Of a stretch of 64,000 nt of DNA, positions 35,147 through 61,999 are shown piece by piece. The stretch comes from Candidatus Poribacteria bacterium (GTDB lineage Bacteria > Poribacteria > WGA-4E > UBA9662). Location: the NCBI GenBank assembly GCA_036339735.1, contig JAYZAL010000087.1, forward strand, positions 11,820 to 75,819, written 5' to 3'. The translations under genes were made by a program, and so were the position numbers. The notes beneath the pieces were generated by a model. That model saw only the letters and a list, made by a program, of their open reading frames with translations, did not search any database and was not told the origin of the DNA. The stretch's first letter is position 1; the number at the start of each line of letters is the position of its first letter.

Positions 35147-35191
35147 TCACAAGTTTATTTGATTCAGAGGAATGAATGTGAGGTTAAAACT

Positions 35192-35380: not shown

Positions 35381-35578
35381 AAAAGTTTAACCAAATTTGT
35401 TGCTGAAACCTCTGGAAGATTTTGGTTAGTCTGCTTAACCGTAAGGGGATATCAAAATAGTCAAGGACTCGGCTGAACTTGTAACGATTATTTCTGTTTG
35501 TCTTGGAAACTTGCGGATGTAGATTGGGTTTCTATTGATTCATCTTCTAATTTGGAGCAGGAATAGGAGGATTTTTCT

Positions 35579-35806: not shown

Positions 35807-35837
35807 TCATTATTTTTCATTTTCAGTGGTGAATCAC

Positions 35838-43600: not shown

Positions 43601-46600
43601 ACCCTGATCGACTAGGGGGTGAGCAATTGGTGATGAGATGGATGGAGCTGTGATTTTGAAGTTAGCTGTTGTTAATTGCTCAGCTGATTGTGGCACTAAT
43701 TGAAGTCGAACGACCAAATTAGTTTTTTCACCAGATGGACCACCTAATATACGATTTTCGGCATTGTGAGAAACTGACTGGATAAACATCGGCAGTAGAT
43801 TATATCTATCTACACCATGATTTGATGGTAGCATTTCTACTTTCATCCAAACCTGATTACCGTAGGTACGAGTAGCCTCACCAACTTGGATGGGCCTCGC
43901 TTTCCCATCCAAGTTGGTGAGGCTTAGCGATACCGAATTGTTAACTTCTTCTGGTTTTGCAATACAGAGCCAACCATTAGTTTGAGAAAGATTAAAACGA
44001 TACCAATCGCGTTCATCCGAATGTAAACCTAAGATCATCTGATCCAAATCTGGGATTAGTGTTGCTAAATTCATCGTATTATTCGGTTCTTTTTCAGTAA
44101 ATCGAACGTTTTTTCCAGACTCTACTAAAATTTGGTAATTAGACAAATGATCCATGTTGGACGATTCTTCTAGAATTGGCGATACGATCAGAGTATACGA
44201 CCCTTCAGATAAATTAATCCACTGTTGGTCTTTAGGGAATTGTAGTAAGCCAATTTGGTTGTTTTGTTGATTTGCGAAACGATTTTCGGCTGAGTTAGGT
44301 CCAGCAAAAATCTTTAGATTTAGTTTCGAATTATCTGGTTCGATTAGTGAACTTAGAGAAAACCGAACAGGCCCCACCAAGTTGAGCATATACTTTTCAC
44401 CAACAAAAGTTTGTCCAAATAAAGCAAGAGTTCCCTCATTATTAGAAAGTAATGGTTGGTTGGTCTGAACTGAACTAGTAAATTCCTGAGTAATTGCATT
44501 GGCATGCCACCGGGACGTTGACAAAGATAATTGGTAATCAGAATTTGGGCTTTCATTTTCAGCTCTAATTCGTAGAAAAAGAGACTGATCTTTAGTTTTT
44601 GCAAACAAATGAACCTTTTGTTGGTTTTCAGGTCGGGATCTGACTTGAGCCAGTAGCTGCATATCCGTAGAAAATAAATCCAGTTGCGTCTCACCTGTAC
44701 CCATTGGACGATGAAAGTACAGATCAAAATTGTGATCTGATATGTCTGTTGCTTGTGTTGATAAAACGAGGCAAAACCAATCTAAATCGTTTGCTGAATG
44801 ATTGCCCCCTTGAACCATGGCTTGTTGGGTTAAATTGTTAGCGTGATTGACTGTGTCGTTGGGCTCAATTTCGGATATCAAAGTCGGTCGAACTAAGAAA
44901 GTATGTTGGCGAACAGACTGTAGACCGGGTACTAATACTCCATCAGTTTTGATTGAGAACGTATGCTGACCTGGGGACAAGTTATGTACAGTCAATTGGT
45001 AACTAGTTATAGGTTGGTAAGGATTTTGGTCTAAACGATAGTAGATAGTTGGTGTTGGTTGATCGGGTTGAATTGACCAGTTGGGCATAAAGCGAAAAGT
45101 TGCACTGTTTTGCCTTAGAACACCTAATGGTGAAGAAACCAAAGAAATTACATGGTTATCCTGTGCAGGAGAAGTATAGCTAACCATGTTGTTTATCGAC
45201 TGCACTGGCCCAGCAACTGACTCTTTTTCTAGGAGTGATTGGTTCCCAGACTGATCTAACACAGTCACAGCATAAAAATTAGGCCTTGTATCACCCGATG
45301 TTTGCACTTCTACACTACTCAAGTTTAAGTTAGTAACAACCAAGGTTACCGGCAACCCACTTAGATCAGTGATAGGGAACGACGAATGGTAAACCCGATA
45401 GGCTAAAAAATCAGTAATCTGAGTAGGTTCCCAATCTAGGGTAATCAAGCCACCATTATCGAAGGGTGTATCCTCCGCAGAAATGATGGTGATTGCGGGT
45501 GGGATTCGGTTATCCACAGCCCGTCCAGTAGTTGTTACAATATTGGACTCATTACCCGCTAAATCCACAACGGTCACACCAATATGATAATCCACATCAG
45601 TCTTTTCTAATTTTACGAGGACGGAATTTTTTATTTCAGCAGAAGCAGAAATAGAATTGTGATTAATTGAAAAAGCAAACAAGTCGACGGGAATACGACC
45701 ACCGAAAGACTGAATAGGTACTTGGCTGAGGTAAATCTTATATTTATCTGTACTGGCACGTTGATTTTGGGTTAGTCTAGGCCAAGAGACTACGACCCAA
45801 CTGCCGTTATCATCAGGTATGTCAACAGCTTCTAAGGCAGAAACCGGTAATGGTGCAATAGTATCTGCAGCAATGGGTTGAGTCGATGTTAGGGTAGATG
45901 GAAAGCCTGATAGTGGCTGAACTAAGTAGGCGGTCACAAGACCTGATTGAAAATTGTCACCAGTTTGGATCTTCAGTTGGTAAGTATGCTGAGAAGAGTA
46001 CTTACGGATAAACCGGTTGCGATCAACTAGTATTTGGTTGGTATATGGATCTACAATAGCCAGATTGATTTTATTTTCGGTTGGTATATCAACAACTATG
46101 GTCACCATATCAGCAATCTTCAATGTTGTTAAGGCATCATGCTTGATTGTACCGGTATTTTTTGTTCTGGTGTTTTTAGGCGTAAATAAGGGGTAAACAT
46201 TTTTACTGGACTTGTTTCCAGCCGAGTCAATCAGTGTAACTATCAATTCAACTGGCTGTAAGGACCGCCAGATTTCGGGTTCTGGGATCCTTATACTTCC
46301 TTCATAGATACTGAACTGTTTAGTTAAATCATTAGAACTTCGCTCGTCCATCTGAATCATAACGGTCTCTGATTGTGCCAAGTCGTTTATTTTCTGAAGC
46401 GTAATAAATGCTCTGTTGTTTGATTCTCCAGTCAGGCTAACCTCTAACTCTTCTCCCGTTATAATTTGGCGAAGCGAACCGTCGGGGCGAACGGCGCTGT
46501 GTTTAGCTGTCAATATCTGAGGTGGTATGACATCAATTGATAAATGACCATCGGGGTAGGGGTCAGATACAATCAGTCTTCCTGTTTCACCTTTAGTATT

Positions 46601-49600
46601 TATTAATTCAATTACTACACGAACATCAGTAGTAGGTTGACCAAAATTTCCGATAGAGAAGGTCGTTTGATACTCGAATGATGGTTGATTGTAACCAGAA
46701 GACGTTACAACAGTGGATAAGTTGTCCGTAAGGACCAAGCTCGACGATTTGACCTGTGCAACCTCTATTTGGCGTGGCATTTGAGAATAAGTTTGAACCT
46801 TCAAGTGTATCTCGTCGCCCATTTTCAATTGTCGGTTGGTACTACTATTTTGACTGATGTTAACAGTTACGGACTTAACTAAAAAAGTAGACAATGTGTA
46901 ATTAATTTCAGCCTGAGAATTAACCTCAATTAGGTAAGAATCTTCACTCAAATTATAACTTTGTATGTAAGTCGTTTGTTCACCAGTATTTCTTATTGCT
47001 GATGTGTCTGCCTCAATAAGATTATCAGCGTTATTTCTTAGGCTAATAATAGCCGATTGTTTTTTCGGCAAATTAGCACCAGCCACTAATTCGATTGCTA
47101 GCTGACCATCTTGTGGTACCTTTAGTTTGTAGTAGTCGATTTCGTCGTTTCCGTTTATGTCACCGATAAAGCCATGGATTAATCGATTGATCGGTAGAGG
47201 CGTAGCATTGGAAAATGTTTGATTAGGTTCACTTTCTAATAAAATTTCGTCCGAAATTATAGTGATGTCTGGCTGATTATTGATAGAACTGACGGCGGGA
47301 AATTGAACAGGGTTTTGGTTACCCGAATCATCTACAGTTGCCACTGTGAAATAAAAAGGAACCTGATTTCTTTCGGTTTCGACGACAGTTTCAACGCTCG
47401 TTTCCGATTGATTAGATACAACAGCTTTTTCCAAAATGAGTTGACCAATGTTAGCAGGACTCGATGAACGATAAATGTTATAGTGAGAAAACCCGCCAAG
47501 GGGTGGTGTCCAAGCCAAACGAATCTTTTTCCCCTCGTCACCGGCAATGTCTTGAGATGAAGGATTAGTAATTGGGATCGGTAAAACACCATCAATACGA
47601 ATTGGTTGATCTGCATTCTTTCTTACAGTTGTACCATTAGATTTTTCTACGGTGGCAACAAGTTTTCCAACTTCGACTCTATCTCCCACCTTGACGGTTA
47701 AGGTGAATGAATAATTTTTGTCTCCATTATCTAAGGGTTCGGTTTTTTTATCAGATATGAACCGCTCACTCGAAATTAGTATTTTGTTACTATCTTTTTC
47801 CTGGATTTGTAATTTGGGTTTCGATTGACTAATTACACTAATGTACAATTTTTGCCCGACAATGAGTGTATCTTTTCCACTGTGACTAAGGCCGGCTATC
47901 GGGGCGTTTGTGGTGTCAATATGAATTTTCTGCGATAGTGGAAAGAAAATTGGATGTGGGGTCGATAATCGGATGAAAATTTCAGCTTGGTTTGCCTGCA
48001 AACCTTCCGGCAGGTATTCGGCTGGACCGGCATTTGACCATCTTTCTGTTATAAGTGGAATATTATAGCTAGCTTGTTGGAAGGGAGGTGTGATCCCGTC
48101 TACAATTACGGGTTCGACTATCACATTTAGTTGATCGCCAATTGTCAGTTGGTTCTCCGCTTTGCTATAATTGATTTGGTACTCGGCTTTCTGTAGAAGT
48201 GTTGCCAATAGCTGATACGAGCTGAGTATTTCTGATGTAGCAGAAATACTAACCTGATAGACACCCTTCCGTAAATCATAAATGAAAAATCTTCGATTAG
48301 CTGAGAAGTAGTCGACGCCTTCGTCCCTTGGCAAAAGAGGGTGGGTAGTCGTACCAAAACGTTGTATTGAAATGTCAACGGGTGTCTCATTTTCTGTCTG
48401 AGATATATAGTTGACAACCAAAATACCGTCGGTCGGTAAGACTACACGGTAGCGGTCGTTATCTTGGGAACTGTTCAAAGCTCCGAAGACTGTACTACTT
48501 GGTAACGTTCCAACCAATGGAAGTGTTCCACTCAGCTCGTTTGATTCAAACTCCCAATTGTTGGTCAAACTAAATTGGCTTGCTAGGCTGTAACTGGTAT
48601 TAGCTATTCCTTCACATAGAATGAAGTAAGAGCCAACATCCAAACCCAAGCTGAATTTACCTTCACTACTGTTAGCTCTGGCTATGGTTGTGTCAAATTG
48701 TTTAAGCTCAATATCTATATCACTGTTACTACTTGACCAGTGCAGGTCAATCAGGCCACTTTCAACAACTTCAAGTCGATAAATATCAATTTCTTGGTTT
48801 GTTAAATTGCCATGGACTTGCCAGCCAAAAGGTAGGACATCGGCTTGTAACAGGCTGTCATTGGGTTCACGTTCACTGAGTGGAGATCGATAAACATTGA
48901 ATTTTCGAATAACTTTCTGCTCTTGATCGCCACTTAGTAAAGCTAATTGGTGCTGGCCCACTGTTAATCCAGTGAGTGTGAGTTCATTAGCTGTGGTTGG
49001 TTGCAAACGCCCACCATCGAGCTGATAGTAAGTAAAAGTTTGTTCAGCTGAGAACCAGCGAAAAGTTAAGTTATCCTGCCGAATCGGGCCAAGTGCAGTT
49101 GTAATCCATTCGATTTCGTTGATGGTTTCTGGTTGCTTAGCCAAGTTTGAATGGGACTGGGTTGGTTCAGATATAGACTGTGGAATAACATGTGATTCAT
49201 TGCCAGCGAAGTCAACAGCAGTAACGAAAAAATAGTGGTCTAACATGTCATCAATCGTCGGCATTTCAACTGATGTGACATAGGGATGTGGAACTTTTAT
49301 GGATAGATGTTCCGGCTTTTTTTTACCCGTTTCCGGTGGGGTTATTGAGCGGTGAACTTGATAATATGAGAAATCATCAGCTCGACTCGGTTGAGTCCAA
49401 GATATGGTAACACTACCACCAAAGTCATCAATAGTATCAACGGCTGAGACTATAGCTACCGGTGATGGAGGTAAATTATCAAACGCAATTGTTGGCTTAG
49501 ACAAAGACCCCAAATCAATTTCAGATTCATTCCCGACTTGGGTGACAGCTGTCACCGCTATGTAATAGGGTATACCATTTTGATCAACTTGGATAGTTTT

Positions 49601-52294
49601 TTGGCTTAATTCAGGTTCTAAGTTGTAAATAAAGGGTTGATCTGTCACACGGATCGGTCGATCATTCAGGTATATGTTGTACCCAACTATTTTTGGATCA
49701 GTAGATGCCTTCCATTCCACTCGTAATTGATACCCATCGTCTTCGGCAATATCTGTTACCTTTTTTATTACGATTGGTTTAGGGCGGATTCCATCTAGAG
49801 TAACTTTATCAGGCAAAGTAATCTGGACCAACGGCTGATTTGATGGTTCATAAAATACATGGACAGCCACATCGGATAAGTCGTCAGTTGCTTTTACCGT
49901 GTAAGTGCCCCGAAGTAATCCATTTTGATTTCTCAATGGATATCGATCTATTTGGTGCCCCAATTGGAAGTAGCCACTACCGATAGCTTGTAGGTTTTGG
50001 TCCGTCTGGTAAAGTTTCATAGTTACCACCAAAGTTTGCCCGAACCTTAATGGCTGGTCAGCATTATGTTGAACTAACTCTATCTTGGGAGCATTACCAA
50101 TGATGATTACTTTTTGCGGGTGTTCTCGAACAAACGTATTGCCTGCGGTGTCAATGCTACGAGCTATGACGATACCATCCATCACTTGATGTGTTTTTAG
50201 TACCGATAGTATTCCAATTTTGGACTGTCCAGAACTCAATTCCTGTTTTTGTAATGGAAATCTCAGTTGAACTTGGCCAGTTTCAGCTGATTGGATTTCA
50301 ATAAAAACCTGATCTGTAGGGTCAAAGTCACCGATTACTTGAACTGTCAAACGATCACCGGCTGATAGCACGCCGGAACCGTTGTGCTGAATACTCTCGA
50401 TATATGGTGCTACAGTATCAATCTGGATTGGTCGTGGCAGGTCGACTACGACAGCTAAACCTATTTGAGGTTTCCAAGTCACTCGAACAAATGCCGAGGT
50501 GACGTCTTCACCTAGTTGTGGTGTGTAAGTTCCAATATAGGTATTATCGCTTAGCATCATAGACCTTTTGGCTAAACGTTCTGGGAATACTGAAGGTGAA
50601 AATTCCCCTATTAGTTCAAATTGGGGGGGGGTGAGAGCTGTAATCTGTCCGGTTGGTAAGTCCATCAATACAGTTAAGGTTTCACCTAAGGCTAATTCTC
50701 CTTCAGCACTGTGAGATATGGATTTGATTAGATTAGTAGTCAACTGGTAACTAGCAGTTCCAGAAGGGAAAAAAGGGGAAACTCGAATGAAATACTTACT
50801 GTTTGAGACTGGAACTGAAAGCTGTCTTGTCTCGTCAGTAATAGACGAAACAGAATAGAATTGATTTTGTCCAAGCACTTGCTGAACAGAGTCATACACT
50901 TCAACTTGGATCCAGCCAGCTTTTAGTGTTGTTTGTAAGTCGACAACTAGAAACGACTGTTTTGTTCTGCTTGGAATAATACTCTGGCTAAGATCTACCC
51001 GAAACCAATCCACATCATTCTGGCTATCCCAGTGGGTACCTGAAAGTGGATTACCTAACGTAAGCTGTGTCGCCTGCTGTGAGTTTACAAAGGGTGATAC
51101 ATTATTAGGCTCAATCTCAATGTCCATGTTGGGATCAAGCTCAGCTAAAGAAACATTTACGAAATAAGGAGAATCAACTGTGTCACTACTGAGTGTAATA
51201 TTGCTGTTGTCGACGACTAGAAAATATTCACCAGGTACTAAGGGAAATAAAAGTTCTGGGCTCGGATTTTCAGTAACATTGACCGTAATCTGGCCTACTT
51301 TTCGGTTGTTAATATCATCAGTAATTAGTGGGGATCGGTAAATATCAATAGTGGTGGGACCTACCACAAGCGGGCGGATTATGCTTAATGTCAGGCTTTG
51401 ATTTTTGTTGACGTATAACCGAAACCAATCTTGGTCTCCTTCGTGGTTTTTGTCACCAATAATGGTCAACGGGTTATCAATCGTAGGATTTATCCGATTC
51501 GCTCTTATATAGGAATCATTATTCTCTGCATCCCAAGCGAAATCAGTACCAAGTTCGTTTGCTGAAACAGTCAAAAAGTACGATCGATGGTTAGCATCGA
51601 CGGATTCAGGAACTACTTTCAGATAATATCGGGTTTCACCTGTTAATCTCCTTCGATTTAGACCAACTGTACCAACAACGAATTGACTATTGATATCACT
51701 GATTCGCGCGGTGTGAACCAAGTTTTCTTCTGATACCTGTTCTTGATAGATCAGTAAGTTCGTAGCTCCAGTTCCACCTTCTCGATTAAGTGTGAAGGTT
51801 AATAGACCATTTTGAGTAGTCAGAGAGTATTGGAACCAATCAACATCATTTTTGTCTAAACTTACACCTCGGATAGTTCGGTTGAATAAAACTGGGTTAG
51901 CTTCGGTTTGTCGATTGTTGAACTCCAGCTCTGCTTGAAAATCCAACTGCACTCTGAAACTTCTAACAACTGGAGTTGGGTCCTTTTTACCATCTACAGT
52001 AATCGCTGAGACTGATAGGTTGTAAGTATCATCGGTCAAATCCCTAAATGTTACATGGTTACTTTGAGTAAAATTACTCTGGCCATTCAGTGTGTAGTCA
52101 AAACCTAAAATCTGCTGGCTGGGTGCTGTCCCCATCCACCAAAAGGTTGGGTTCTGATAACCAATATCACCGTCAGGGCCACTAATAATCTCAGTTTCAA
52201 CAGCTAAATCTGAATGTGCTAGATTTGTGACAAGAAATGAGATCAATAGTGAGAATACTACACCGACTAAGGTTTGGGCTTGTTTCAAGTTCAT
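40601..52294 (-). CDS. Giant (3897 aa) secreted repetitive protein with FN3-like, PPC-like and Ig-like modules and a C-terminal YPNP/FlgD-Ig-like domain
   Basis: Signal peptide; eight DxxxDxG...W FN3-like repeats; several ExEPN/DxDWF modules; two DDG...DGVYT motifs; ends VVVYPNPF...WDGLND...SGLYIY...IMVIR. Confidence 0.85.
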   Translation of the reverse strand: MNLKQAQTLVGVVFSLLISFLVTNLAHSDLAVETEIISGPDGDIGYQNPTFWWMGTAPSQQILGFDYTLNGQSNFTQSNHVTFRDLTDDTYNLSVSAITVDGKKDPTPVVRSFRVQLDFQAELEFNNRQTEANPVLFNRTIRGVSLDKNDVDWFQYSLTTQNGLLTFTLNREGGTGATNLLIYQEQVSEENLVHTARISDINSQFVVGTVGLNRRRLTGETRYYLKVVPESVDANHRSYFLTVSANELGTDFAWDAENNDSYIRANRINPTIDNPLTIIGDKNHEGDQDWFRLYVNKNQSLTLSIIRPLVVGPTTIDIYRSPLITDDINNRKVGQITVNVTENPSPELLFPLVPGEYFLVVDNSNITLSSDTVDSPYFVNVSLAELDPNMDIEIEPNNVSPFVNSQQATQLTLGNPLSGTHWDSQNDVDWFRVDLSQSIIPSRTKQSFLVVDLQTTLKAGWIQVEVYDSVQQVLGQNQFYSVSSITDETRQLSVPVSNSKYFIRVSPFFPSGTASYQLTTNLIKSISHSAEGELALGETLTVLMDLPTGQITALTPPQFELIGEFSPSVFPERLAKRSMMLSDNTYIGTYTPQLGEDVTSAFVRVTWKPQIGLAVVVDLPRPIQIDTVAPYIESIQHNGSGVLSAGDRLTVQVIGDFDPTDQVFIEIQSAETGQVQLRFPLQKQELSSGQSKIGILSVLKTHQVMDGIVIARSIDTAGNTFVREHPQKVIIIGNAPKIELVQHNADQPLRFGQTLVVTMKLYQTDQNLQAIGSGYFQLGHQIDRYPLRNQNGLLRGTYTVKATDDLSDVAVHVFYEPSNQPLVQITLPDKVTLDGIRPKPIVIKKVTDIAEDDGYQLRVEWKASTDPKIVGYNIYLNDRPIRVTDQPFIYNLEPELSQKTIQVDQNGIPYYIAVTAVTQVGNESEIDLGSLSKPTIAFDNLPPSPVAIVSAVDTIDDFGGSVTISWTQPSRADDFSYYQVHRSITPPETGKKKPEHLSIKVPHPYVTSVEMPTIDDMLDHYFFVTAVDFAGNESHVIPQSISEPTQSHSNLAKQPETINEIEWITTALGPIRQDNLTFRWFSAEQTFTYYQLDGGRLQPTTANELTLTGLTVGQHQLALLSGDQEQKVIRKFNVYRSPLSEREPNDSLLQADVLPFGWQVHGNLTNQEIDIYRLEVVESGLIDLHWSSSNSDIDIELKQFDTTIARANSSEGKFSLGLDVGSYFILCEGIANTSYSLASQFSLTNNWEFESNELSGTLPLVGTLPSSTVFGALNSSQDNDRYRVVLPTDGILVVNYISQTENETPVDISIQRFGTTTHPLLPRDEGVDYFSANRRFFIYDLRKGVYQVSISATSEILSSYQLLATLLQKAEYQINYSKAENQLTIGDQLNVIVEPVIVDGITPPFQQASYNIPLITERWSNAGPAEYLPEGLQANQAEIFIRLSTPHPIFFPLSQKIHIDTTNAPIAGLSHSGKDTLIVGQKLYISVISQSKPKLQIQEKDSNKILISSERFISDKKTEPLDNGDKNYSFTLTVKVGDRVEVGKLVATVEKSNGTTVRKNADQPIRIDGVLPIPITNPSSQDIAGDEGKKIRLAWTPPLGGFSHYNIYRSSSPANIGQLILEKAVVSNQSETSVETVVETERNQVPFYFTVATVDDSGNQNPVQFPAVSSINNQPDITIISDEILLESEPNQTFSNATPLPINRLIHGFIGDINGNDEIDYYKLKVPQDGQLAIELVAGANLPKKQSAIISLRNNADNLIEADTSAIRNTGEQTTYIQSYNLSEDSYLIEVNSQAEINYTLSTFLVKSVTVNISQNSSTNRQLKMGDEIHLKVQTYSQMPRQIEVAQVKSSSLVLTDNLSTVVTSSGYNQPSFEYQTTFSIGNFGQPTTDVRVVIELINTKGETGRLIVSDPYPDGHLSIDVIPPQILTAKHSAVRPDGSLRQIITGEELEVSLTGESNNRAFITLQKINDLAQSETVMIQMDERSSNDLTKQFSIYEGSIRIPEPEIWRSLQPVELIVTLIDSAGNKSSKNVYPLFTPKNTRTKNTGTIKHDALTTLKIADMVTIVVDIPTENKINLAIVDPYTNQILVDRNRFIRKYSSQHTYQLKIQTGDNFQSGLVTAYLVQPLSGFPSTLTSTQPIAADTIAPLPVSALEAVDIPDDNGSWVVVSWPRLTQNQRASTDKYKIYLSQVPIQSFGGRIPVDLFAFSINHNSISASAEIKNSVLVKLEKTDVDYHIGVTVVDLAGNESNIVTTTGRAVDNRIPPAITIISAEDTPFDNGGLITLDWEPTQITDFLAYRVYHSSFPITDLSGLPVTLVVTNLNLSSVEVQTSGDTRPNFYAVTVLDQSGNQSLLEKESVAGPVQSINNMVSYTSPAQDNHVISLVSSPLGVLRQNSATFRFMPNWSIQPDQPTPTIYYRLDQNPYQPITSYQLTVHNLSPGQHTFSIKTDGVLVPGLQSVRQHTFLVRPTLISEIEPNDTVNHANNLTQQAMVQGGNHSANDLDWFCLVLSTQATDISDHNFDLYFHRPMGTGETQLDLFSTDMQLLAQVRSRPENQQKVHLFAKTKDQSLFLRIRAENESPNSDYQLSLSTSRWHANAITQEFTSSVQTNQPLLSNNEGTLALFGQTFVGEKYMLNLVGPVRFSLSSLIEPDNSKLNLKIFAGPNSAENRFANQQNNQIGLLQFPKDQQWINLSEGSYTLIVSPILEESSNMDHLSNYQILVESGKNVRFTEKEPNNTMNLATLIPDLDQMILGLHSDERDWYRFNLSQTNGWLCIAKPEEVNNSVSLSLTNLDGKARPIQVGEATRTYGNQVWMKVEMLPSNHGVDRYNLLPMFIQSVSHNAENRILGGPSGEKTNLVVRLQLVPQSAEQLTTANFKITAPSISSPIAHPLVDQGEGLFIGRMEIPQYLHLPQGQLVIEMMSQQPINDQQFLNFRGQLTINEPINIDTVPPTIISVEHDAVTVGGLSQPIGLRQTVEIRLIGSGGNHAKFQIRQKSNGSILAQGIMKEISDSADSKDQAHTYIGHYTIESSTIQTDTQNTQVIGVLSDLAGNTAQLQSLIPLVVDTRSPNIDSLSYRIQRLGQEVPTSSTLLPGDQLIVTLVGETDCQASCLVGERKFDLYDDGTHGDIQSNDGVYTAICLITEADFVSETTTMNGFLTDRAGNTDNRFADRPITIDTKPPEIEYIQHNATKALIMGDQLIVYLKGELSCSASFDVGQLKGNIMVDDGSGKDQKAHDGVYTGQYSVENDLNIEIRAAVVIGHLVDSGGNTQTIQSSQPVTIDAVPPRIVTDVRAIDVPKDQGNVIEVSWNVAEESDFSRYQVYRETAPIRSTLGLIPIPTPLLDLKQNLTRISAPRNSFDYYIAVTAVDIAGNESEVSTSQLKESTFGPVQAIDNLAPPAVVGVQAKDRPDDNGKTILVQWQPLPQESMGNEVNSEYKSDFQAYHIYRYTSRPVLQQTQPGLAEELAPNLAGTIVDPNIYQVTVDVPKNRVNYYVSVVAIDENGNRSSVVDSSLAGPVQAIDQIAPPPVIGVQVSDTPSDSGMAVTVSWEFPESNVQDEIDHYLILLSEQQPTIDDINFMNSGATPLVEPIKVRADKFSQLPKSLKPSQKVTIPQSGLTVYAAVVAVDEGGNQSKLGVSSIAGPVRAVSNYVYPQIETTIQAGFAPKTKLVLPPAVIGSEITTVDILEPTNSLLSIQIEEANFYLGTANIEPTHDDELKPTIRQIDGQVERLSKSAKLTIGFSAESIPASVVPNLRIFRLNPYGKLTLWDLVPGKQTIDIENQTVTANISQLTVFRIAHLRLPTNLDQVVVYPNPFVPSQSINQQVTFLKLTENATVNLYTLDGERVRTKLESTTGRAVWDGLNDAGAEVISGLYIYHIEGEGVQKVGQIMVIR

Positions 52295-52622: not shown

Positions 52623-55121
52623 CTAATGTGGTACTCCCAGGTCATGCATTCTTTGGTGTAAGACTCGGATTGCTTCCTGAAACGGACGTTCTAGAAATTC
52701 TAGATGGTCTTCTTCACCATGATGATGTGTGGTTTGGCGTGGGTCATAGTGACGGACCGTATTCCGAATGTAGGAAAGGCTACCTTCGGCTAGAGTAATC
52801 ATGTAGTTAGCAGTTTCTAAATCGAACATCCACCATTCACCACCAACGGCAATATAAATCGGTGAGGTGTGAGCAATGATACCTCGGCTCCAGCCATCGT
52901 AATGTGGGATAGCTTGTGGATAGTTGGGGCCACCACAACGAGCAATAATCCAGGAATGTCGGTCACAGTTGATGCTGCAGTTTAGGGTTAGCGATTTCTG
53001 GCCATTTAAGTCTTCAATACGATCAATGACTTCTCCATTCCTGACAATTTCTAGACTATGGACAGGGAAAATTGATTGGCAACTAGCTGAAATTTCAATT
53101 GTTCCACCATTTCCCTTCAAGTTGATAGTTGAACCAATAGGTTCCCCATTAACCGACAGTCGAATTATCGGTCCCCCACTAAGAAAAGTATTACCGGCTT
53201 TCAGATATTTACACCAATTATGATAATTAAACTCCTCTTCTTCGGGGATATAGACATAGGTTCGATACAAACCTACAGGTACATCGCTGCTCATTTTGTC
53301 GGTTCCACCGACTAGGGGCAATTTGTAACCGCAGTTAAGGTAGCGGTAATATTCAATGTGTCCGTATTCAGCGTTGGTCAAGTATTCAACTGCATCGACC
53401 CGATTAGTAGCAATCAAAGTTGATGGCTCCCCATTAGGATTGGGTATATGCGGCAAGATGACTGTTCCACCTTGTGCATGGCAAGCATCGGCCCAGTGGG
53501 ACAATGTAGTTTCCAAGTTACCTGCATGTTCTGCTTCGTTAGACCCACCTGAGCACCACGGGTTGACAGCTTCTTTTAAGCCTAGCAAAGTCAAATGTCC
53601 CAAGACGTGCTGTCGATTTTCTTGGGTGGCGTAGACTATGCTTTTACCATTATGGGCGATCGATGGTTTGCCGATAAACTCTTCGGTATTGGTAAACAAA
53701 TGACCCCATTGGGATAATAAAAGGTTAACAACATCCAAATCTTCTCCTTGAGCTTCAGTATGGGCTCCTTGAGTAGACAAAAAATGTACATGAGTATCTC
53801 CAGAAAAATAACGTTCTGCCTTCATATCACACCAGCGAGTAAGCCGTAATTCTAATTCCCTCTGGTTAGGTTTAATATCAACCTTAGTTCTGAGTGGCTG
53901 ATACTCAAACCCTCTGGCCACGTCGACGATTACCTCGCCTCTAGGTAGCCAGCCTTGACATTTACCATCGATATAGGCATAGGTCAATTGCCCTAGCCGT
54001 ACATCTCCACCAACGTCGATGTGCCAAGTACCCATGTCTGAATTCACGTGTCCATGATGCCCGTGAGGAGCATAGGGTACACCATTAATTGATCGGAAAT
54101 GAACTCGGCATGGAATAGGTTGATTAGTTTGGTCATCAATTACTGTGGTGTGTACCCAGTTGCGACCACCATCAATAATTTTAACCTGAAGTTGTTTGTT
54201 AGGTTGTATTGACTCCTGTTGTTCTAATTGTCCCCATTTGACTTGTCCCAGTTCTTGACCATGATTTTTGATTTTGACTGTCGCTGAAGGAGTAGCCGAA
54301 ATTTCGACATAGCTTGGGCTTGATTGTAAGTTTCGTGGCTCTCCCCAGCCCTTCTGGTAACTGTTCAGATCTTGATCGATTGAGCGATTGGGTAGAGGAT
54401 ACGGATAGGTAACTAGACCACGGTCAACCTCAACTTCTAACCCAAATGGTTTCTCAGCTTCATTGTTTTCGGATAAGGTAATCATGACCTCACGACGTCC
54501 TTGACGAGCAATTGGATCCTCGTTCAGAAACCCAAGGGTAATTCCAGCTATGAGGAACTCACGGTCAAAAGGTGTTATCTCCATAGCACTTACCAAGTCT
54601 TGTGGCCGTGGGTTTTTCCAGATCCACAAAGTATAGTCTCTAGGATTACCCGCATTGGTTTCTGTCTGTCGATTACCTGCGTTACCCCAGTGGCCTCGAT
54701 ATCGGTCAAATAGGCTGTCTTCTTGGTCGGGGTAGGAGTTGAAGTTATTTTGCCCCCAAGCTGTTGGTATTGCGGAAATCTCGAACCGTTCACGAATTGG
54801 CACTTCGACTGAATTTCCATTTCGATAGTGGAAAACATAATTGGCGATTTGCCGACCAACTTGGTCCCCTGTCATCAATTTCGAGTCTAGCAAACGATGT
54901 GCGACTATAAGTCGATGAATGATGACATCACTAAGCATAATAGAGATGGGTTGAGTCGCTGGTTTAAAAGTAATAAAGCAATTTTGTTGATTATCCCCAA
55001 TGTGAAAAGGTAATCCATGATAACACTGGGCACCCAATGCTGGCTCTGATGGTACTCCTTTGAGCTTGTCAGTACCAGAATTGTAATACAGGTTCAAATC
55101 CATCGGTTGATAGTCTGTCAT
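52623..55121 (-). CDS. CehA/McbA-family PHP-like metallohydrolase
   Basis: ARGFEY, FSGDTHVH, QENRQHVLGH, LNCGYKLPLVGGTD, AHTSPIY. Confidence 0.78.
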   Translation of the reverse strand: MTDYQPMDLNLYYNSGTDKLKGVPSEPALGAQCYHGLPFHIGDNQQNCFITFKPATQPISIMLSDVIIHRLIVAHRLLDSKLMTGDQVGRQIANYVFHYRNGNSVEVPIRERFEISAIPTAWGQNNFNSYPDQEDSLFDRYRGHWGNAGNRQTETNAGNPRDYTLWIWKNPRPQDLVSAMEITPFDREFLIAGITLGFLNEDPIARQGRREVMITLSENNEAEKPFGLEVEVDRGLVTYPYPLPNRSIDQDLNSYQKGWGEPRNLQSSPSYVEISATPSATVKIKNHGQELGQVKWGQLEQQESIQPNKQLQVKIIDGGRNWVHTTVIDDQTNQPIPCRVHFRSINGVPYAPHGHHGHVNSDMGTWHIDVGGDVRLGQLTYAYIDGKCQGWLPRGEVIVDVARGFEYQPLRTKVDIKPNQRELELRLTRWCDMKAERYFSGDTHVHFLSTQGAHTEAQGEDLDVVNLLLSQWGHLFTNTEEFIGKPSIAHNGKSIVYATQENRQHVLGHLTLLGLKEAVNPWCSGGSNEAEHAGNLETTLSHWADACHAQGGTVILPHIPNPNGEPSTLIATNRVDAVEYLTNAEYGHIEYYRYLNCGYKLPLVGGTDKMSSDVPVGLYRTYVYIPEEEEFNYHNWCKYLKAGNTFLSGGPIIRLSVNGEPIGSTINLKGNGGTIEISASCQSIFPVHSLEIVRNGEVIDRIEDLNGQKSLTLNCSINCDRHSWIIARCGGPNYPQAIPHYDGWSRGIIAHTSPIYIAVGGEWWMFDLETANYMITLAEGSLSYIRNTVRHYDPRQTTHHHGEEDHLEFLERPFQEAIRVLHQRMHDLGVPH

Positions 55122-55290
55122 CAAGCTTTTCCTAAATCGTTTTTTTTACTTAGGTTTTCATTAAGATAGCAAAATTAACCTATACGTACAACGATTTTCA
55201 GTTTTTTCCGGTGCCTATTTTTTTGAACACTAGTGGCTTTTGCTAAAATTGATTTACCAAAGGGGATAGATGTACAGCTTAACTGCCTCG

Positions 55291-56746: not shown

Positions 56747-58354
56747 TTATTTCGCCATGGCTAATGTTTCTGAGATTGAATACGTTTGACCTTGAAATTG
56801 AACATCTGCACGACAGACATATATGCCAGTTGCGACTTTATTGCCATAGGCTACTCGGCCATTCCACCAGCCAAACCCAACCTGTGGGTAGGTATTATCT
56901 ACAACTCCCTCTAGTAAGCGAATAATTCGCCCATTACTGGCAAGAACTGTGTATCGAATGTTATCGATAGGCTGATTAGCAATTGTCTGGAAGGTGATCT
57001 GGTTATGACCAGCTAGAACTGGATTGGGATAAATTTTGATTTCCTCAAGTAGAAAAGCTGGACTAAAATCGACCACTTTTTCTACCGCCATGACACCAAA
57101 CTGGTTTGCTATGGCTACTTGTAAATGATTAGGTCCTGGTGATAGATGAACTTGAGCCGAAAAACTGGACTGTAAAAGGTCTGGTGTTAACCAGTCAGCA
57201 GGAGTCTGTATTCGATTTAAATTAGCTATAACATTGCCGGGTGAGATGATGATTTGTACAGGAAATGGGGTTCTCACTTGGCCTGAGATTGTGACAGGAT
57301 TGATTTTGGTCTGTACTATCGGGTTGAAGGTAATATGGAACCCTTCAACTGGTCTAGGGAATTCACCAGATTCCAGATTTTTGCTAACTAAGGAGTGACT
57401 CAATAAGCTATCAATGGTAACTAATGTCAATTGTGTTGTTTTTTCAATTAATCGAATATTGAGCTTGTCGACAGTATCCTGTTGGGTATGAAAAAAAGGA
57501 TTAGCATCATATCCTTTGCTGTCTCTCCAAGGAGTCGTACTCTCAATCAAAGTGACAGCTGGATAGCCTGCGGCCCAAAAGGGTTGATGGTCGCTATCTA
57601 CAAACATCGGATCAACAACTATATCTAGCAGAAAACCTAAATCGTACCACTGGTTGCTAATCTGAAAGGCTTTGGATAACCAATGAGATGACTGATCCAC
57701 AGCGATTTGAAGTAAATTAGTCTTCCAGTTATAACCAATCATATCTAAATTAATGACGGCTGCAATCGACTCACCTTTTTTAACTGCCTGACGGGCGTGG
57801 TATCTGCTACCAATCAAACCGATTTCCTCGCCATCGAAAGCTACAAATCTCAGATGGTGTTCGTACTCATAAACAGATAAAATTCGAGCGATTTCTAGCA
57901 TACTACTGATACCACTTGCATTATCGTTAGCGCCCGGTGCTTTGGACAGTAAAGGGTGCCAGTCAGAAGACAGGTTGGCCTTGGAATCGTAATGAGCAGA
58001 AATAATGAAAATACGATTACCGGAAGAATTAGAATCAGATCGGGCTGGCAGATCGGCAACTATATTCTTCAGACCACTGAAATTCTCTTCTCGGACATGT
58101 AAACGTGGTGATTGACGAAAGGTGTTGGCAATGATTTTAGCAGCGTTGTCAGCAGCTGGTCGATGATAAGAACTACGAGTGTAGTAGGGGATCCCAGTTT
58201 TTAGATCAATGTTTTCCTGCAGAGCGATGATCAGTGTCCGAATTTGGTCGAATTGAACCTGAGGAAGAAGCCTATCACCTCTTCCTGCCAATATAGGAAG
58301 GACAATAATGAAAAACAGGGACACAGAGGCGACCCATCGATGGAACCGACCCAA
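56747..58354 (-). CDS. Secreted M28 family peptidase with C-terminal YPNP domain
   Basis: SAHYDS, GANDNASG, DGEEIGLIGS, NLDMIG, SDHQPF, FHTQQDT; C-terminal IKIYPNPV...WNGR...GIYV. Confidence 0.88.
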   Translation of the reverse strand: MGRFHRWVASVSLFFIIVLPILAGRGDRLLPQVQFDQIRTLIIALQENIDLKTGIPYYTRSSYHRPAADNAAKIIANTFRQSPRLHVREENFSGLKNIVADLPARSDSNSSGNRIFIISAHYDSKANLSSDWHPLLSKAPGANDNASGISSMLEIARILSVYEYEHHLRFVAFDGEEIGLIGSRYHARQAVKKGESIAAVINLDMIGYNWKTNLLQIAVDQSSHWLSKAFQISNQWYDLGFLLDIVVDPMFVDSDHQPFWAAGYPAVTLIESTTPWRDSKGYDANPFFHTQQDTVDKLNIRLIEKTTQLTLVTIDSLLSHSLVSKNLESGEFPRPVEGFHITFNPIVQTKINPVTISGQVRTPFPVQIIISPGNVIANLNRIQTPADWLTPDLLQSSFSAQVHLSPGPNHLQVAIANQFGVMAVEKVVDFSPAFLLEEIKIYPNPVLAGHNQITFQTIANQPIDNIRYTVLASNGRIIRLLEGVVDNTYPQVGFGWWNGRVAYGNKVATGIYVCRADVQFQGQTYSISETLAMAK

Positions 58355-58438
58355 ATTAGACCTCTAAGGCTTCGATTTAATCTATCACAGCAGAATTAGG
58401 AATGTCAATTTGGTATCATCTGTTGTTTAGCCTTTTAT

Positions 58439-58467
58439 TTGCTTTGCCAAATGCTGTCTTATATAAT
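58439..58467 (+). promoter_or_regulatory. Sigma70-type promoter of the redox lipoprotein operon
   Basis: TTGCTT-N17-TATAAT about 50 bp before ATG 58518. Confidence 0.5.
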
Positions 58468-58517
58468 TTAAGAGCTATTGCACTTATTACTATTAAGACA
58501 CAGAAAACAGGAACCAC

Positions 58518-59612
58518 ATGACCAGAAAAAGACGTTCATTCTCAGTTGTTGTGATGATCTTAGTTTGTTCTCTGATTCTGCACTTTGGTTGTGGCGAGTC
58601 AGTAGACGAAACATCAGACGTTACTGCTGATGACCAAACCCAACCGATGGGTAGTATCAAGGGTAACATTCAACCATCTGGAATAGAAGCCAAACTAGAG
58701 CTGATAAAAAACGGCCAAATAGTAAGATCAAGCGATACTGACAAAGCCGGCCAGTTTGTCTTTGCCGACTTAGAGTTTGGAACCTACCAGATTAGAGTCA
58801 TCAGTGATGGTTATCAAACAGAGGAAAAAGTGGTTCCAGCTGAGTTACAGCAAACTGAACTCGTCATGGAACTGAAATTGAAACCACTACCGGCTCAGTT
58901 GAGTGGTATTGTCATTGACTCAGAAGGTGAATTCATTTCAGGAGCGACAGTAACACTTGGTGGTCAGACTCAAACAACTAACGACTTGGGTGTCTTCCGG
59001 TTCGATAAACTAGAAGCTGGTACCGAACTAGAAATAACTGTTGTTGCCGAATCAATGCTACCGAGAACCGTCGAAGTTGGCCCCATTGCTAGAGGTGAAT
59101 CGAGCAAAATTCAGGTGGAACTAGAACCAGAAGTGATCGAAGAAGATGATGGCGCTGAAGTTGGGGATATGGCCCCCATATTTTCTCTGCTAGACACAAG
59201 TAATCAGAAAGTGTCACTATCAGATTATGCTGGGAAAAAGAACATCTTGCTAACCTTTAGTCGGGGTAAGTTGTGACCGGTTTGTGCACCGCAACTGGTT
59301 CAGTTGCTAAAACCCAACTACAAGCAAATTGCTAATTTAGACACTGAAGTGATTGCCATAAGTCCTTGGTCAGTAGCAGAAAATAAGGCCTTCAGGCAAC
59401 AACATAAACTGCCATTCCCCTACCTGGCTGATCTTGGAGCTGACGTTATCCGTCAATACGACGTGTTGGACTTTCAGCCATTGCCAAAAGTATCTTTCTT
59501 TCTGATAGATAAAGCTGGGAAAATTCATTGGAGATCCACTCATAGTGGTGGCGACCCAAATGACCTACCCCAGATTGATGAACTGCTAGAGGGTCTCAAA
59601 AAAATACAATAA
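58518..59612 (+). CDS. Lipoprotein with two carboxypeptidase-regulatory-like domains and an AhpC/TSA (Prx-like) domain, probable selenoprotein (TGA 59274-59276 read as Sec253, UPVC)
   Basis: HFGC lipobox; VGDMAPIFSL...LLTFSRGKL*PVCAPQL continues in frame into 59304..59612 (VIAISP, LPFPYLAD, FLIDKAGKI). Confidence 0.88.
59291..59307 (+). promoter_or_regulatory. Candidate bacterial SECIS hairpin
   Basis: GCAACTG-GTT-CAGTTGC, perfect 7-bp stem at +15..+31 after the TGA. Confidence 0.7.
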
Positions 59613-59622
59613 TGAGTGACTG

Positions 59623-60171
59623 ATGTTTAGAACAATCACTGTTTTTTTCAGTTTTTGTACTCTCGTGAGCCTGGCAATCGCTTTGGTAACTAGTTGCGGA
59701 GATGTGTCCGATGATCCGGCAGATCAAACCTCCGAGCAAGAAGTAGTATCCACCGAATGGGCCAAGAGTGCCCCTGATTTTAAATTATTGAGTACTCAAC
59801 TAGAGCAAGTTACCTTGTCTAGCTTTAAAGGTAAAGTCGTACTACTCGACTTTTGGGCAACTTGGTGTCAACCCTGTCAAGTGGAAATGCCGATATTTGA
59901 ACAGCTACACCACCAATATGAAAACAAAGGATTCAGTGTAGTTGGTATTTCAGTTGATCGAGAAAAATTGACGGTAGTAGAGCCGTTTGTTGAAAATCTA
60001 GGTATTGGTTATCCGATCTTGTTTGCTGATGAAAAGGTCTTTCGAGAGTACGCTATCATGGCCTTGCCAACCGCAGTCCTGATCGATCGGCAAGGCAAAA
60101 TCCGCCATCGTTTTGAAGGCGCTACTGGTAGTAAAGAAAGCTATGTCGAGTTGATAGAAAAATGGCTCTAA
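59623..60171 (+). CDS. TlpA/ResA-family thiol-disulfide oxidoreductase lipoprotein
   Basis: VTSC lipobox, APDFKL, LDFWATWCQPC, LPTAVLIDRQG. Confidence 0.9.
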   Translation: MFRTITVFFSFCTLVSLAIALVTSCGDVSDDPADQTSEQEVVSTEWAKSAPDFKLLSTQLEQVTLSSFKGKVVLLDFWATWCQPCQVEMPIFEQLHHQYENKGFSVVGISVDREKLTVVEPFVENLGIGYPILFADEKVFREYAIMALPTAVLIDRQGKIRHRFEGATGSKESYVELIEKWL

Positions 60172-60410
60172 CCCGGCTTGGACTTACGGCGTGCTTACTA
60201 CTTCTGGTATCGTGTCTACTAAGCGGCTGTTTATGGCAAATTATTGATCAGTCTGAATTGCAAATAAACTTTACTTCTGAGCCACCAATTTTGTCGTCTT
60301 CACCGACATGGGCAGAATTTGAGCAACTGCAAAACGATAGTACTGAATCAGATTTTTCTTCTAGCAAGGCCAGTAGTGTTTGTGCGAATGGTATTTGTAC
60401 GATCTATTAG
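60162..60410 (+). CDS. Small lipoprotein with C-terminal CANGIC Cys pair
   Basis: LSGC lipobox, Ser/acidic linker, ends VCANGICTIY; overlaps both neighbours. Confidence 0.65.
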   Translation: MALTRLGLTACLLLLVSCLLSGCLWQIIDQSELQINFTSEPPILSSSPTWAEFEQLQNDSTESDFSSSKASSVCANGICTIY

Positions 60411-61560
60411 TTCTATCAGTTCCCTTGGTCGTGTCGTACGAAGCTCAATACAACTCATCGTCTTACTATGTATTTGCCGGCCCAGTCATGGTGAGCTGAC
60501 TTATCGGATTCAAGATAGTCTAGGCTATGATGATCATATAGAGTTTGGCCTTAGCGTGGATCCTGATACCAGCCCGTTGGCTGGGCGCCAAGATTCTCAA
60601 TTGTCGGGCTTCCTGAACCAACTACAATCTGAAGCCAAATGGGTTTACCAACCAGTCAAGGTTTTGAAATCCGAACTAAATCTGAGCGGACAACGCTATC
60701 ATTACTTAGAAATAGAACAAAGCTCGTCGGATCAAAAAAATGAAGCCGGTTTAACCGCCTTCAATGGCTATGCATATCAGCTTTCAGGCCGGACTAACTA
60801 TCAGTTTTCAAACCGTTTACCATCCCTAAGGCTGGGCTATCAGTTGCAACGCCAAAACCGAGTAGATGCAGCATACAATCAACGTTGGCAGGGTGTAGAA
60901 CTGAGTTGGGGACGGATTGTAAGTTATCGCTATAAAAGCAATTGGTTCGATGATGAAACTACTAAAAGAAAAGACTTTCAGTTAGTTGGTTCACAAATGC
61001 ACCAGCTAGAATGTGGGCTGAAATTAAACCTTTGGTTTAAAAAACCAGCACAACTCACCTATCTCTTGACACTGCGACACTACCAGTCCAACTTGAGCGA
61101 TCTGATTTGGTTCGCAACGGGTTTGAGCCAAGTTGATAGGCGCTTCGATCGCTTACATCAGTTAACGTGGCGCCAGCCTTGGCAACTAAACGATCGTTTG
61201 ATCCTTCAGACGGAAGCGCTTTACCAGAGAAATCAAGGCAACTTATCGTTCTATCACTTTTCTGCTGGCCAAACCAATTTGCTAGCTTTCTACCTTTGGC
61301 AACCGGGAAGATCGATTCAGTTAACCACTGGAGGCCGATGGTTAACTCAGACTGGTAGAAAGGTCGAGAATGAGGAAGGTATTCGCAGAGACTTTCAATG
61401 GCAAATTGAAGCAGAATTGCGCTGGCGATTGAGCCAGAAATTCTCACTGATAGCAGACTACCGTTGGTTACAAAACCAAACGAACGAAACTGCTCAACGC
61501 CTGTCGTTTCTGAATTACGTCCATAATCAATTGCAGTTAGCAATTGTACTGACCAACTGA
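60388..61560 (+). CDS. Putative outer-membrane beta-barrel protein
   Basis: Signal-like N-terminus from ATG 60388; many alternating aromatic/polar strands (QDSLGYDD, LRLGYQLQR, LIADYRW, HNQLQLAIV). Confidence 0.55.
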   Translation: MVFVRSISSISSLGRVVRSSIQLIVLLCICRPSHGELTYRIQDSLGYDDHIEFGLSVDPDTSPLAGRQDSQLSGFLNQLQSEAKWVYQPVKVLKSELNLSGQRYHYLEIEQSSSDQKNEAGLTAFNGYAYQLSGRTNYQFSNRLPSLRLGYQLQRQNRVDAAYNQRWQGVELSWGRIVSYRYKSNWFDDETTKRKDFQLVGSQMHQLECGLKLNLWFKKPAQLTYLLTLRHYQSNLSDLIWFATGLSQVDRRFDRLHQLTWRQPWQLNDRLILQTEALYQRNQGNLSFYHFSAGQTNLLAFYLWQPGRSIQLTTGGRWLTQTGRKVENEEGIRRDFQWQIEAELRWRLSQKFSLIADYRWLQNQTNETAQRLSFLNYVHNQLQLAIVLTN

Positions 61561-61588: not shown

Positions 61589-61999
61589 ATGGTTAAGCAA
61601 ATCGACCTTACTTTGCCGCCGTTTCGACGAGGTTTCCACCTCATCACGTCCGAGATTATTGACGCAATTGGTAAATTACCTGCGGCTGGCTTGATGAACA
61701 TATTTCTTCAACATACCTCAGCAGGAATTACGATCAACGAAAATGCGGATCCCACAGTTCGCCAGGACTTTGAAAGCAGTTTCAATTACCTGATTGCAGA
61801 AAATGAACCATTTTATGTTCACACCTACGAGGGGCCCGATGACATGCCTGCTCACATTAAATCGGCTTTGGTTGGCTGTTCTGTGACCATTCCAATTACG
61901 TCTCACCGGCTCAATTTGGGCGTGTGGCAAGGCATATACCTCTGTGAATTTCGAAATCAGGCCAGTGGTCGGCACCTGATAATAACTATTTACAGTTAG
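61589..61999 (+). CDS. yjbQ: YjbQ/UPF0047 family protein
   Basis: RGFHLIT, HTSAGITINENADP, DDMPAHIK, LGVWQGIYLCEFR. Confidence 0.92.
   Translation: MVKQIDLTLPPFRRGFHLITSEIIDAIGKLPAAGLMNIFLQHTSAGITINENADPTVRQDFESSFNYLIAENEPFYVHTYEGPDDMPAHIKSALVGCSVTIPITSHRLNLGVWQGIYLCEFRNQASGRHLIITIYS

Follow-up and report, generated by a model that had tools for sequence, protein, structure and literature searches.

A selenoprotein, a TlpA-like protein, a mini-lipoprotein and a beta-barrel: a candidate thiol/selenol redox module in the envelope of Candidatus Poribacteria

How does redox chemistry reach the outer membrane of a bacterium without haem or flavin? This question is raised by four genes, termed g1 to g4, at positions 58518-61560 of a 64,000-nucleotide stretch of contig JAYZAL010000087.1 (the whole analysed stretch is referred to as the window). 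The cluster belongs to Candidatus Poribacteria, an uncultured phylum of marine and sponge habitats, and the window sequence is present in seawater and marine metagenome runs. To our knowledge, most of what is known about reductive pathways in the bacterial envelope comes from proteobacteria. An initial annotation of the DNA had proposed four closely coupled genes, and all four tightly packed open reading frames (ORFs) were located on the plus strand, with a gap of 10 bp between g1 and g2 and overlaps of 10 nt (g2/g3) and 23 nt (g3/g4). The lipoboxes named there (HFGC in g1, VTSC in g2 and LSGC in g3) each follow a basic, hydrophobic N-terminus, as assigned by eye, and the motifs UPVC, CQPC and terminal CANGIC were all found in the ORF translations. 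Pfam matched g1 and g2, NCBIfam placed g2 nearest to ResA and TlpA, and g3 and g4 were unmatched in both databases.

Our answer, to which we give about half of our confidence, is that the four genes constitute a lineage-specific poribacterial envelope thiol/selenol redox module built around the lipoprotein-barrel pair g3-g4. This reading takes its footing from the parts and their motifs, the recoding of a selenocysteine (Sec) codon, the barrel fold, and the conservation, co-occurrence and co-loss of the genes. Since the in-frame TGA of g1, the Cys pair of g3 and the gene set are conserved in relatives down to ~27-35% protein identity, the four-gene observation is more than chance. Judged by their sequences, g3 and g4 represent two protein families that carry no annotation and seem confined to this phylum.

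Against 5.8 billion proteins, a profile of g3 retrieved 126 relatives, none with a Pfam domain; among them, those bearing a name were all hypothetical proteins of Candidatus Poribacteria. The protein atlas contained no usable match. The initial annotation had made its proposal dependent on the conservation of this mini-ORF and its Cys pair, and both are conserved: the pair is kept in 120/120 retrieved relatives and the complete C-terminal motif C-x-x-G-x-C-x-x-[YFW] in 119 of them, the exception retaining both Cys residues. Exactly three Cys residues, namely the lipid-bearing Cys and the pair, occur in the mature part of 114/117 relatives. A further conserved motif, QSELQIN, and an acidic EFEQLQ stretch complete the protein. 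A second copy of the whole cluster was observed in genome G041 (L053:2454-5191), with yjbQ-moaA-sufC behind it, an order shared with the window. In this copy the lipobox Cys of g3 is replaced (SGY) and the barrel is broken into at least three frame pieces, so that it represents either a decaying duplicate or an assembly error of this 80%-complete metagenome-assembled genome.

For g4, the initial annotation had predicted a beta-barrel, and AlphaFold2 modelling of g4 alone indeed yielded a closed one, composed of a signal helix followed by 16 strands (residues 36-389) with a predicted local distance difference test (pLDDT) of 84.2 and a predicted template modelling score (pTM) of 0.78. This model was obtained from a 35-row alignment of the order and more distant representatives; a 4-row alignment of close homologues gave a pLDDT of 28. 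The best-conserved residues lie in long loops (H50, E52, D58, D188, D189, D196, H205, R252, D254, R333 and D335), as do conserved motifs such as DDHIEFGLSVDP and FDDExTKRKDFQLVGS, and in the model these loops are presumed to face the outer or the lumenal side. Foldseek returned generic porins only (such as OccAB1, OpdQ, OmpF and the PelB barrel) with template modelling (TM) scores of 0.40-0.53 and identities of 7-12%. Ten of the 35 family members weakly matched OMP_b-brl, no Pfam family was found for the g4 of the window, and the protein atlas offered barrel-like unnamed clusters only. Most relatives end in Tyr or Phe; the g4 of the window ends in ...VLTN and carries a signal-like N-terminus. 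The barrel gene recurrently adjoins thiamine-related genes: in families f2 and f4 (the family of the window is f1) it follows thiG or thiS-thiG (L027:360-1127, L028:91-1360, L022:449-1234), sometimes with a toxin-antitoxin-like pair in between, and in the window yjbQ follows g4.

In nearly all genomes of the order, the two new families are found together. The barrel is encoded in 153/159 and the mini-lipoprotein in 154/159 genomes; both are missing from the same three, G001 (95% complete), G051 (closed) and G140 (84% complete), and the five genomes with just one of the two genes are all 73-86% complete. Both genes lie at most 3.2 kb apart in 7/7 f1 and 26/29 f3 genomes, and in 0/10 f2 and 0/31 f4 genomes (distances compared by eye; for f4, the 31 checked genomes with both genes on the same contig). 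A search for related loci with a 3-row barrel alignment gave two loci, and in a second order of the same class (GC content ~60%, barrel identity 27%) the arrangement is TlpA-TlpA-mini-barrel or mini-barrel. Four genomes from three other families yielded neither the mini-lipoprotein nor the barrel. The co-occurrence elsewhere on which the initial annotation had made its proposal depend is borne out, the cluster parts being found together across two orders of the phylum. Because of the occurrence in 154 and 153 of 159 genomes, the shared absences, and the adjacency in f1, f3 and the second order, g3 and g4 are considered coupled.

A joint structure prediction of g4 and g3, which the initial annotation had suggested, gave an ipSAE of 0.57 versus 0.01 for the best control, the runs agreeing in at least 51% of contacts and the partner having a pLDDT of at least 52. 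This corresponds to the mark "weak support", which is reached by 116/157 solved complexes and 2/215 mismatched pairs, scores of up to 0.60 comprising merely 18 of the 157 solved complexes plus both mismatches that passed. No contacts were returned, and the score does not bear on whether the tail lies in the lumen. Taken together with the co-occurrence, the complex score makes a g3-g4 partnership likely.

The same score, as well as the conserved one-to-one pairing of a lipoprotein gene with a barrel gene, would also suit a Slam-like display system, in which g4 would act as translocon or insertion partner that puts g3 on the cell surface, the G-x-C-x-I-Y strand docking to it and TlpA managing the disulfide in transit. 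The last residue of the g3 tail is aromatic and a Gly stands at -5, and such an end resembles the C-terminal signal of outer-membrane proteins. One of the 35 barrels weakly matches Slam (PF04575, E 0.0065); this sole match is at chance level, and the mature g4 consists of a barrel from residue 36 on, with no N-terminal periplasmic domain. Identification of g4 as Slam was rejected on these two points, and we regard the display explanation as quite improbable.

The ORF of g1 is continuous only if its in-frame TGA is read as Sec. The Pfam domain runs across the TGA (AhpC-TSA 89.9 bits, Redoxin 68.3 bits; CarboxypepD_reg gave 68.1 bits), and a 1099-nt RNA-library contig spans the whole gene (58520-59618) with the TGA unchanged. 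In 41 loci scanned, 35 active sites of g1 orthologues were found, and all 35 carry TGA at the aligned site and none a Cys codon; the orthologue of locus L065, missed in the tblastn listing, was recovered by the pattern scan. Downstream of the TGA, RNAalifold recovers from 15 sequences a hairpin with a 7-bp stem and a G-containing triloop, which resembles a bacterial selenocysteine insertion sequence (bSECIS). Across 30 distinct sequences, pairing holds in 95.7% of cells, and 4/7 pairs are changed on both sides, a degree of pairing and covariation reached by 0/500 shuffles, with slid controls pairing at 14-47%. Several of the compensatory changes leave both codons synonymous, e.g. CAA...TTG to CAG...CTG. 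The distances between hairpin and UGA would fit the usual bSECIS constraints. Folded on its own, the single sequence downstream of the TGA did not stand out (z -0.57) and formed another stem, so that the comparative fold alone is informative here.

The genome of the window also encodes recoding proteins: selA, selB and selD score 579, 362 and 359 bits, each over its cut-off. The selD gene (L017, G000:C70:27515-28441) itself contains one in-frame TGA, and selenophosphate synthetase is therefore a selenoprotein here. No tRNA-Sec was found in this 92%-complete assembly, the best Rfam matches being Ser and Leu tRNAs; in 5/5 complete genomes of the order it scores above the cut-off at 75-80 bits. 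Because of the TGA in 35/35 orthologues, the covarying hairpin, selA/selB/selD and the tRNA-Sec of all five complete relatives, recoding of the g1 TGA as Sec is well supported. At position -3 the g1 lipobox HFGC is atypical; the orthologues carry ILSC, VSGC, INGC and GLGC there.

What kind of enzyme is g1? The closest solved relatives are BCP/PrxQ proteins, in which the conserved Thr of PxxxTxxC aligns with Sec and the peroxidatic Cys with the Cys of g1. In the alignment to 2ywn, LTFSRGKL-U-PVC stands against LAFYPAAFTQVC, with Sec in the place of Thr and the Pro absent. A canonical peroxiredoxin (Prx) of the PrxQ/BCP type was consequently rejected, as the active site agrees in the peroxidatic Cys alone. 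Of the earlier label "Sec-Prx", Sec and the AhpC/TSA fold survive, but not the peroxiredoxin active site PxxxTxxC. Because Sec aligns with Thr and Cys with the peroxidatic Cys, g1 is assigned by its sequence, as an enzyme of thioredoxin-like UxxC type, to a predicted selenoprotein family that Table 1 of PMC13188914 lists as "Prx-like thiol:disulfide oxidoreductase" (PF00578; UxxC or UxxU). With that family, as characterized in the table, it shares the AhpC/TSA fold, the UxxC motif and Sec as first residue of the thioredoxin-like motif; it differs by being a lipoprotein with two N-terminal CarboxypepD_reg domains, by its conserved envelope cluster and by orthologues that always contain Sec (35/35). 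Genome G052 encodes four Sec-containing AhpC/TSA paralogues, so that the lineage seems rich in UxxC selenoproteins. In four f4 loci (L078-L080 and L082, genus g17), two to three tandem CarboxypepD_reg-AhpC/TSA paralogues lie upstream of a DUF362 gene.

The second gene, g2, is a plausible reductant. Its Pfam scores exceed the cut-offs (AhpC-TSA 99.1, Redoxin 89.7 and Thioredoxin_8 57.8 bits), and the NCBIfam models ResA (117.6 bits, cut-off 170) and TlpA (87.6 bits, cut-off 230) remain below theirs. Orthologues of g2 lie in the cluster at 16/20 fetched loci with 38-51% identity (42-51% in 13 of 16), and also at 3/3 f2 loci. As TlpA is found within the cluster in f1, f2, f3 and f5, g2 is regarded as coupled to it. 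A DsbD gene is present on another contig of the genome. A second TlpA-like thioredoxin-fold protein of 241 aa is encoded in the window at 37715-38437 (+), beside a Na+/H+ exchanger gene, and shares 29% identity with g2.

For g1, coupling is indicated by co-loss: the three genomes without g3 and g4 (G051, G001 and G140) have no full-length cluster-type g1, only shorter domain-only Sec paralogues, and G052, the sister species of G051, has a full-length one; g1 is therefore taken to be coupled to g3/g4. This bears directly on the explanation that the cluster consists of two unrelated neighbouring units, with g1 and g2 serving an ordinary periplasmic reductive or antioxidant pathway and g3 and g4 being a porin with a small lipoprotein that carries a structural disulfide. 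In f2 and f4 the barrel gene stands apart from the rest, which would agree with such a division, as would the porin-like Foldseek neighbours, the resemblance of C-x-G-G-x-C to a disulfide-stapled turn, and a set of charged residues conserved where predicted strands end (R252, D254, R324, R333, D335), which would suit a solute channel. This explanation is disfavoured by the loss of cluster-type g1 in the very genomes that lack g3 and g4, by the position of TlpA directly before g3 in two orders sharing merely ~27% barrel identity, and by the flanking of a DUF362 gene by g1 and g3 in f2, f3 and f4. On balance, we consider two independent units rather unlikely.

The DUF362 gene is a fifth recurrent partner, beyond the four of the initial annotation. 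It encodes a protein of ~360-400 aa with a twin-arginine translocation (TAT) signal and directly precedes g3 in f2, f3 and f4. A phmmer comparison of the DUF362 protein from the genome of the window with solved structures gave no match. G001 and G051, which have lost g3 and g4, still carry the gene, so that DUF362 is independent of these two; in G140 (84% complete) no copy was detected. The Pfam clan of DUF362 also includes the nickel-pincer enzyme LarA (PMC11770544). From this relation and the position of g3 directly after the TAT-signal DUF362 gene, together with the conserved His/Asp/Glu residues in the barrel loops (H50, E52, D58, D188, D189, H205), one could construct a role in metal or chalcogen handling: the barrel would admit a metal or a selenium or sulfur compound, the g3 tail would carry it to DUF362 or g1, and TlpA would keep the carrier reduced. 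The persistence of DUF362 after loss of g3/g4 is at odds with this, as is its location on another contig beside dapB in the family of the window; moreover, neither g3 nor g4 matches a known metal-binding family, and the conserved cluster contains no metal transporter or regulator. We hold such a role to be very unlikely, and give the same low standing to the cargo forms conceivable for g3, i.e. a thiolate complex, a persulfide or a selenosulfide.

The favoured redox module could operate as follows. Reducing power would enter the periplasm via DsbD and be passed on to the TlpA-like lipoprotein g2, which would keep two clients reduced, g1 and the C-terminal Cys pair of g3. As a UxxC thioredoxin-type "Prx-like" oxidoreductase, g1 would be held off the membrane by its two immunoglobulin (Ig)-like domains. 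If g3 serves the 16-strand barrel g4 as its dedicated partner and is docked at or in it, the module would therefore act at the outer membrane, where it might deliver reducing equivalents to an acceptor or report the redox state. In the sister families the TAT-exported DUF362 protein would be a likely further partner or final acceptor. In a bolder version, g3 would be threaded through or plugged into g4, and the disulfide hairpin of its tail, cycled on the periplasmic side by TlpA and the selenoprotein, would act on the outer face. Were this improbable version true, the cluster would provide a thiol/selenol electron conduit across the outer membrane, comparable to the MtrAB porin-cytochrome wire but made of protein only.

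Several observations weigh against the proposed module. The Cys pair of g3 lies on either side of a Gly-rich turn (C-A-G-G-V-C) and might form a disulfide with a structural role only, and no conserved Cys was found among the 35 barrels. In f2 and f4, which comprise most genomes of the order, the barrel gene is far off by thiG; f4 moreover lacks a cluster-type TlpA in the 6 kb around g3, and the top TlpA-like matches of five f4 genomes share just 33-40% identity. A cluster-type g1 active site is absent from the fetched stretch of 6/41 loci (G045, where a truncated remnant is left, G012 and G016-G019). The complex score lies in the weak band with no contacts returned, DUF362 outlasts g3/g4 in two genomes, and related genomes are not independent samples. 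Finally, we infer every electron-transfer step, the localisation and the contact between g3 and g4.

With respect to transcription, the initial annotation had assumed one promoter ahead of the cluster. This assumption was not confirmed, as a sigma-70 scan of the 163-bp gap at 58355-58517 gave no site on the plus strand; the overall counts of the promoter and terminator scan were no higher than for shuffled sequence. RNA-library contigs from four metatranscriptome studies cover the cluster and bridge every gene junction, which cannot prove a single transcript. They start at 58514-58544, and the cover leaves out parts of g4 in some sets and the upstream region 58300-58513 in three of the four; holes of this kind prove nothing. 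All contig starts in the four studies lie within 30 nt of the g1 start codon at 58518, with no upstream cover in three, a weak hint that the g1 mRNA has a very short leader or is leaderless.

The positions of all features and the gene orders of the families are outlined in Table 1. Upstream, the cluster is flanked by a divergent M28 peptidase gene, whose product weakly matches in its C-terminal region the C-terminal parts of the type IX secretion proteins PorU (E 1.6e-7) and PorZ (E 1.8e-5); downstream, yjbQ is accompanied by moaA and sufC. Elsewhere in the window, a giant ORF of 3897 aa (40604-52294, -) shows a faint fibronectin-III match only, and the adjoining ORF of 833 aa (52626-55124, -) has no Pfam match. 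The region 27796-36869 (+) resembles a zinc-economy cluster and contains two FUR-family regulators, DUF1636, phosphoribosyl-AMP cyclohydrolase, ZnuC/ZnuB/ZnuA-type ABC genes and two CobW-family GTPases.

Table 1. Positions of the cluster genes, their motifs and neighbours, and gene orders in the families of the order. Positions refer to the window unless a locus is given.
Feature	Position	Strand	Description
M28 peptidase	56750-58354	-	Upstream neighbour, divergent from the cluster
g1	58518-59612	+	364 aa; AhpC/TSA selenoprotein lipoprotein, signal peptide, lipobox Cys25
Two Ig-like CarboxypepD_reg-type domains of g1	~58668-58877 and ~58896-59123	+	Pfam
AhpC/TSA domain of g1	59160-59531	+	Contains U253-P-V-C256
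In-frame TGA (U253, LUPVC)	59274-59276	+	Sole in-frame TGA in g1
bSECIS-like hairpin	59291-59307	+	GCAACUG-GUU-CAGUUGC; stem begins 15 nt past the UGA
g2	59623-60171	+	182 aa; TlpA/ResA-like thiol-disulfide oxidoreductase lipoprotein, lipobox VTSC (Cys25)
Active site of g2	59866-59877	+	W-C82-Q-P-C85 (WCQPC)
g3	60162-60410	+	82-aa lipoprotein, lipobox LSGC (Cys23)
Cys pair of g3	60381-60398	+	S-V-C74-A-N-G-I-C79-T-I-Y tail (C-x-x-G-x-C-x-x-Y)
g4	60388-61560	+	390 aa; predicted outer-membrane beta-barrel, signal peptide of ~35 residues (...SHG/ELTY)
yjbQ	61589-61999		Downstream neighbour of g4; NCBIfam name: secondary thiamine-phosphate synthase
DUF362 gene	L060:2600-3766	+	
DUF362 gene	L042:364-1476	+	
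DUF362 gene, genome of the window	L077:3027-4106	-	
f1 (family of the window)			g1-TlpA-mini-barrel; DUF362 on another contig beside dapB
f2			TlpA-g1-DUF362-mini; barrel elsewhere, after thiG
f3			TlpA-g1-DUF362(TAT signal)-mini-barrel
f4			g1-DUF362-mini; barrel after thiS-thiG; cluster-type TlpA not nearby

The analysis provides two new family definitions, a lipoprotein of ~80 aa with an invariant C-terminal Cys pair and a 16-strand barrel. Both are encoded in almost every genome of one poribacterial order and in one or more genomes of a second, and gains and losses affect them jointly. With their companions, a TlpA reductant, an oxidoreductase that obligately contains Sec and a DUF362 enzyme exported by TAT, they make up a small and defined set of parts that is testable in E. 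coli and gives a functional lead for DUF362 as well as for the DUF3570/DUF4266 clusters of analogous layout. Even if the parts were mere neighbours, the selenoprotein annotation, which is well supported, and the definitions of the two families would remain as a gain for an uncultured phylum.

How does the cluster compare with known systems? No description of it was found in the titles and abstract openings of the papers that the literature searches listed; the supplementary tables of PMC8238504 could list related clusters. With regard to architecture, a small partner is encoded beside a dedicated outer-membrane barrel. Known outer-membrane lipoprotein-barrel pairs include LptE/LptD, RcsF/OmpA, PelC/PelB and Slam with its surface lipoproteins, and MtrA/MtrB forms a porin-cytochrome conduit. 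The g3-g4 pair resembles these pairs in its gene arrangement but has no sequence relation to them, and g3 is far smaller, with the single Cys pair as the only conserved chemistry. PelBC and Mtr chains were among the Foldseek matches of g4, at TM scores of 0.4-0.5 as for any porin.

Regarding the reductive branch, the closest counterpart is the ScsB-TlpA-PprX pathway of Caulobacter, in which a DsbD-type protein reduces TlpA and the latter a periplasmic Prx (Cho et al. 2012, mBio, PMC3322552). Both combine a periplasmic TlpA-type reductant with an exported AhpC/TSA protein and an upstream DsbD-type transporter. In contrast to the Prx of that pathway, g1 has a Sec-containing UxxC motif instead of the peroxiredoxin Pro and Thr, two Ig-like domains and a lipid anchor, and the cited passages of PMC3322552 describe the pathway with no lipoprotein-barrel pair. 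The same passages report PrxL of Caulobacter as a Prx-like protein lacking peroxidase activity.

The closest likeness in layout is provided by the cluster of DUF3570, DUF4266, a thioredoxin-like protein and ApbE, often with DsbD (Meheust et al. 2021, eLife, PMC8238504). The TlpA/DUF4266/DUF3570 cluster, which the initial annotation had called established, is indeed in print there and in the Haft preprint (bioRxiv 10.1101/2023.06.07.544157). According to the cited part of PMC8238504, DUF3570 carries flavin at two [S/T]GA[S/T] motifs, and a CXC lies at the C-terminus of DUF4266. The presence of ApbE and DsbD elsewhere in the genome of the window might suggest a diverged member of this flavinylation system. 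Searches with the profile hidden Markov models proposed in the initial annotation gave no such relation, with 0/21 mini-lipoproteins matching DUF4266 (PF14086) and 0/35 barrels matching DUF3570 (PF12094) at E up to 10; a search of 61 genomes with PF12094 likewise gave no match, yet is uninformative as the controls were also unmatched everywhere. Not even one copy of [S/T]GA[S/T] was found in the 35 barrels, the g3 tail reads C-x4-C-x2-Y rather than CXC, and the ApbE domain is absent from the 41 window ORFs scanned, the sole match in the genome being on contig C5. Membership in the flavinylation system is hence scarcely credible. Of the earlier notion of an analogous system, the likeness in layout holds, but every defining feature tested failed; because of the missing DUF matches, flavinylation motif and ApbE in the window, the present cluster is, by its sequences, an analogue by layout and not a member. 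As far as the cited part of PMC8238504 describes that system, both share the layout, and electrons presumably arrive via DsbD in both. They differ in the Cys pair (C-x4-C-x2-Y here, CXC there), and the poribacterial cluster is set apart by a small protein that is a lipoprotein, by the addition of a selenoprotein oxidoreductase and, in the sister families, by the TAT-signal DUF362 protein.

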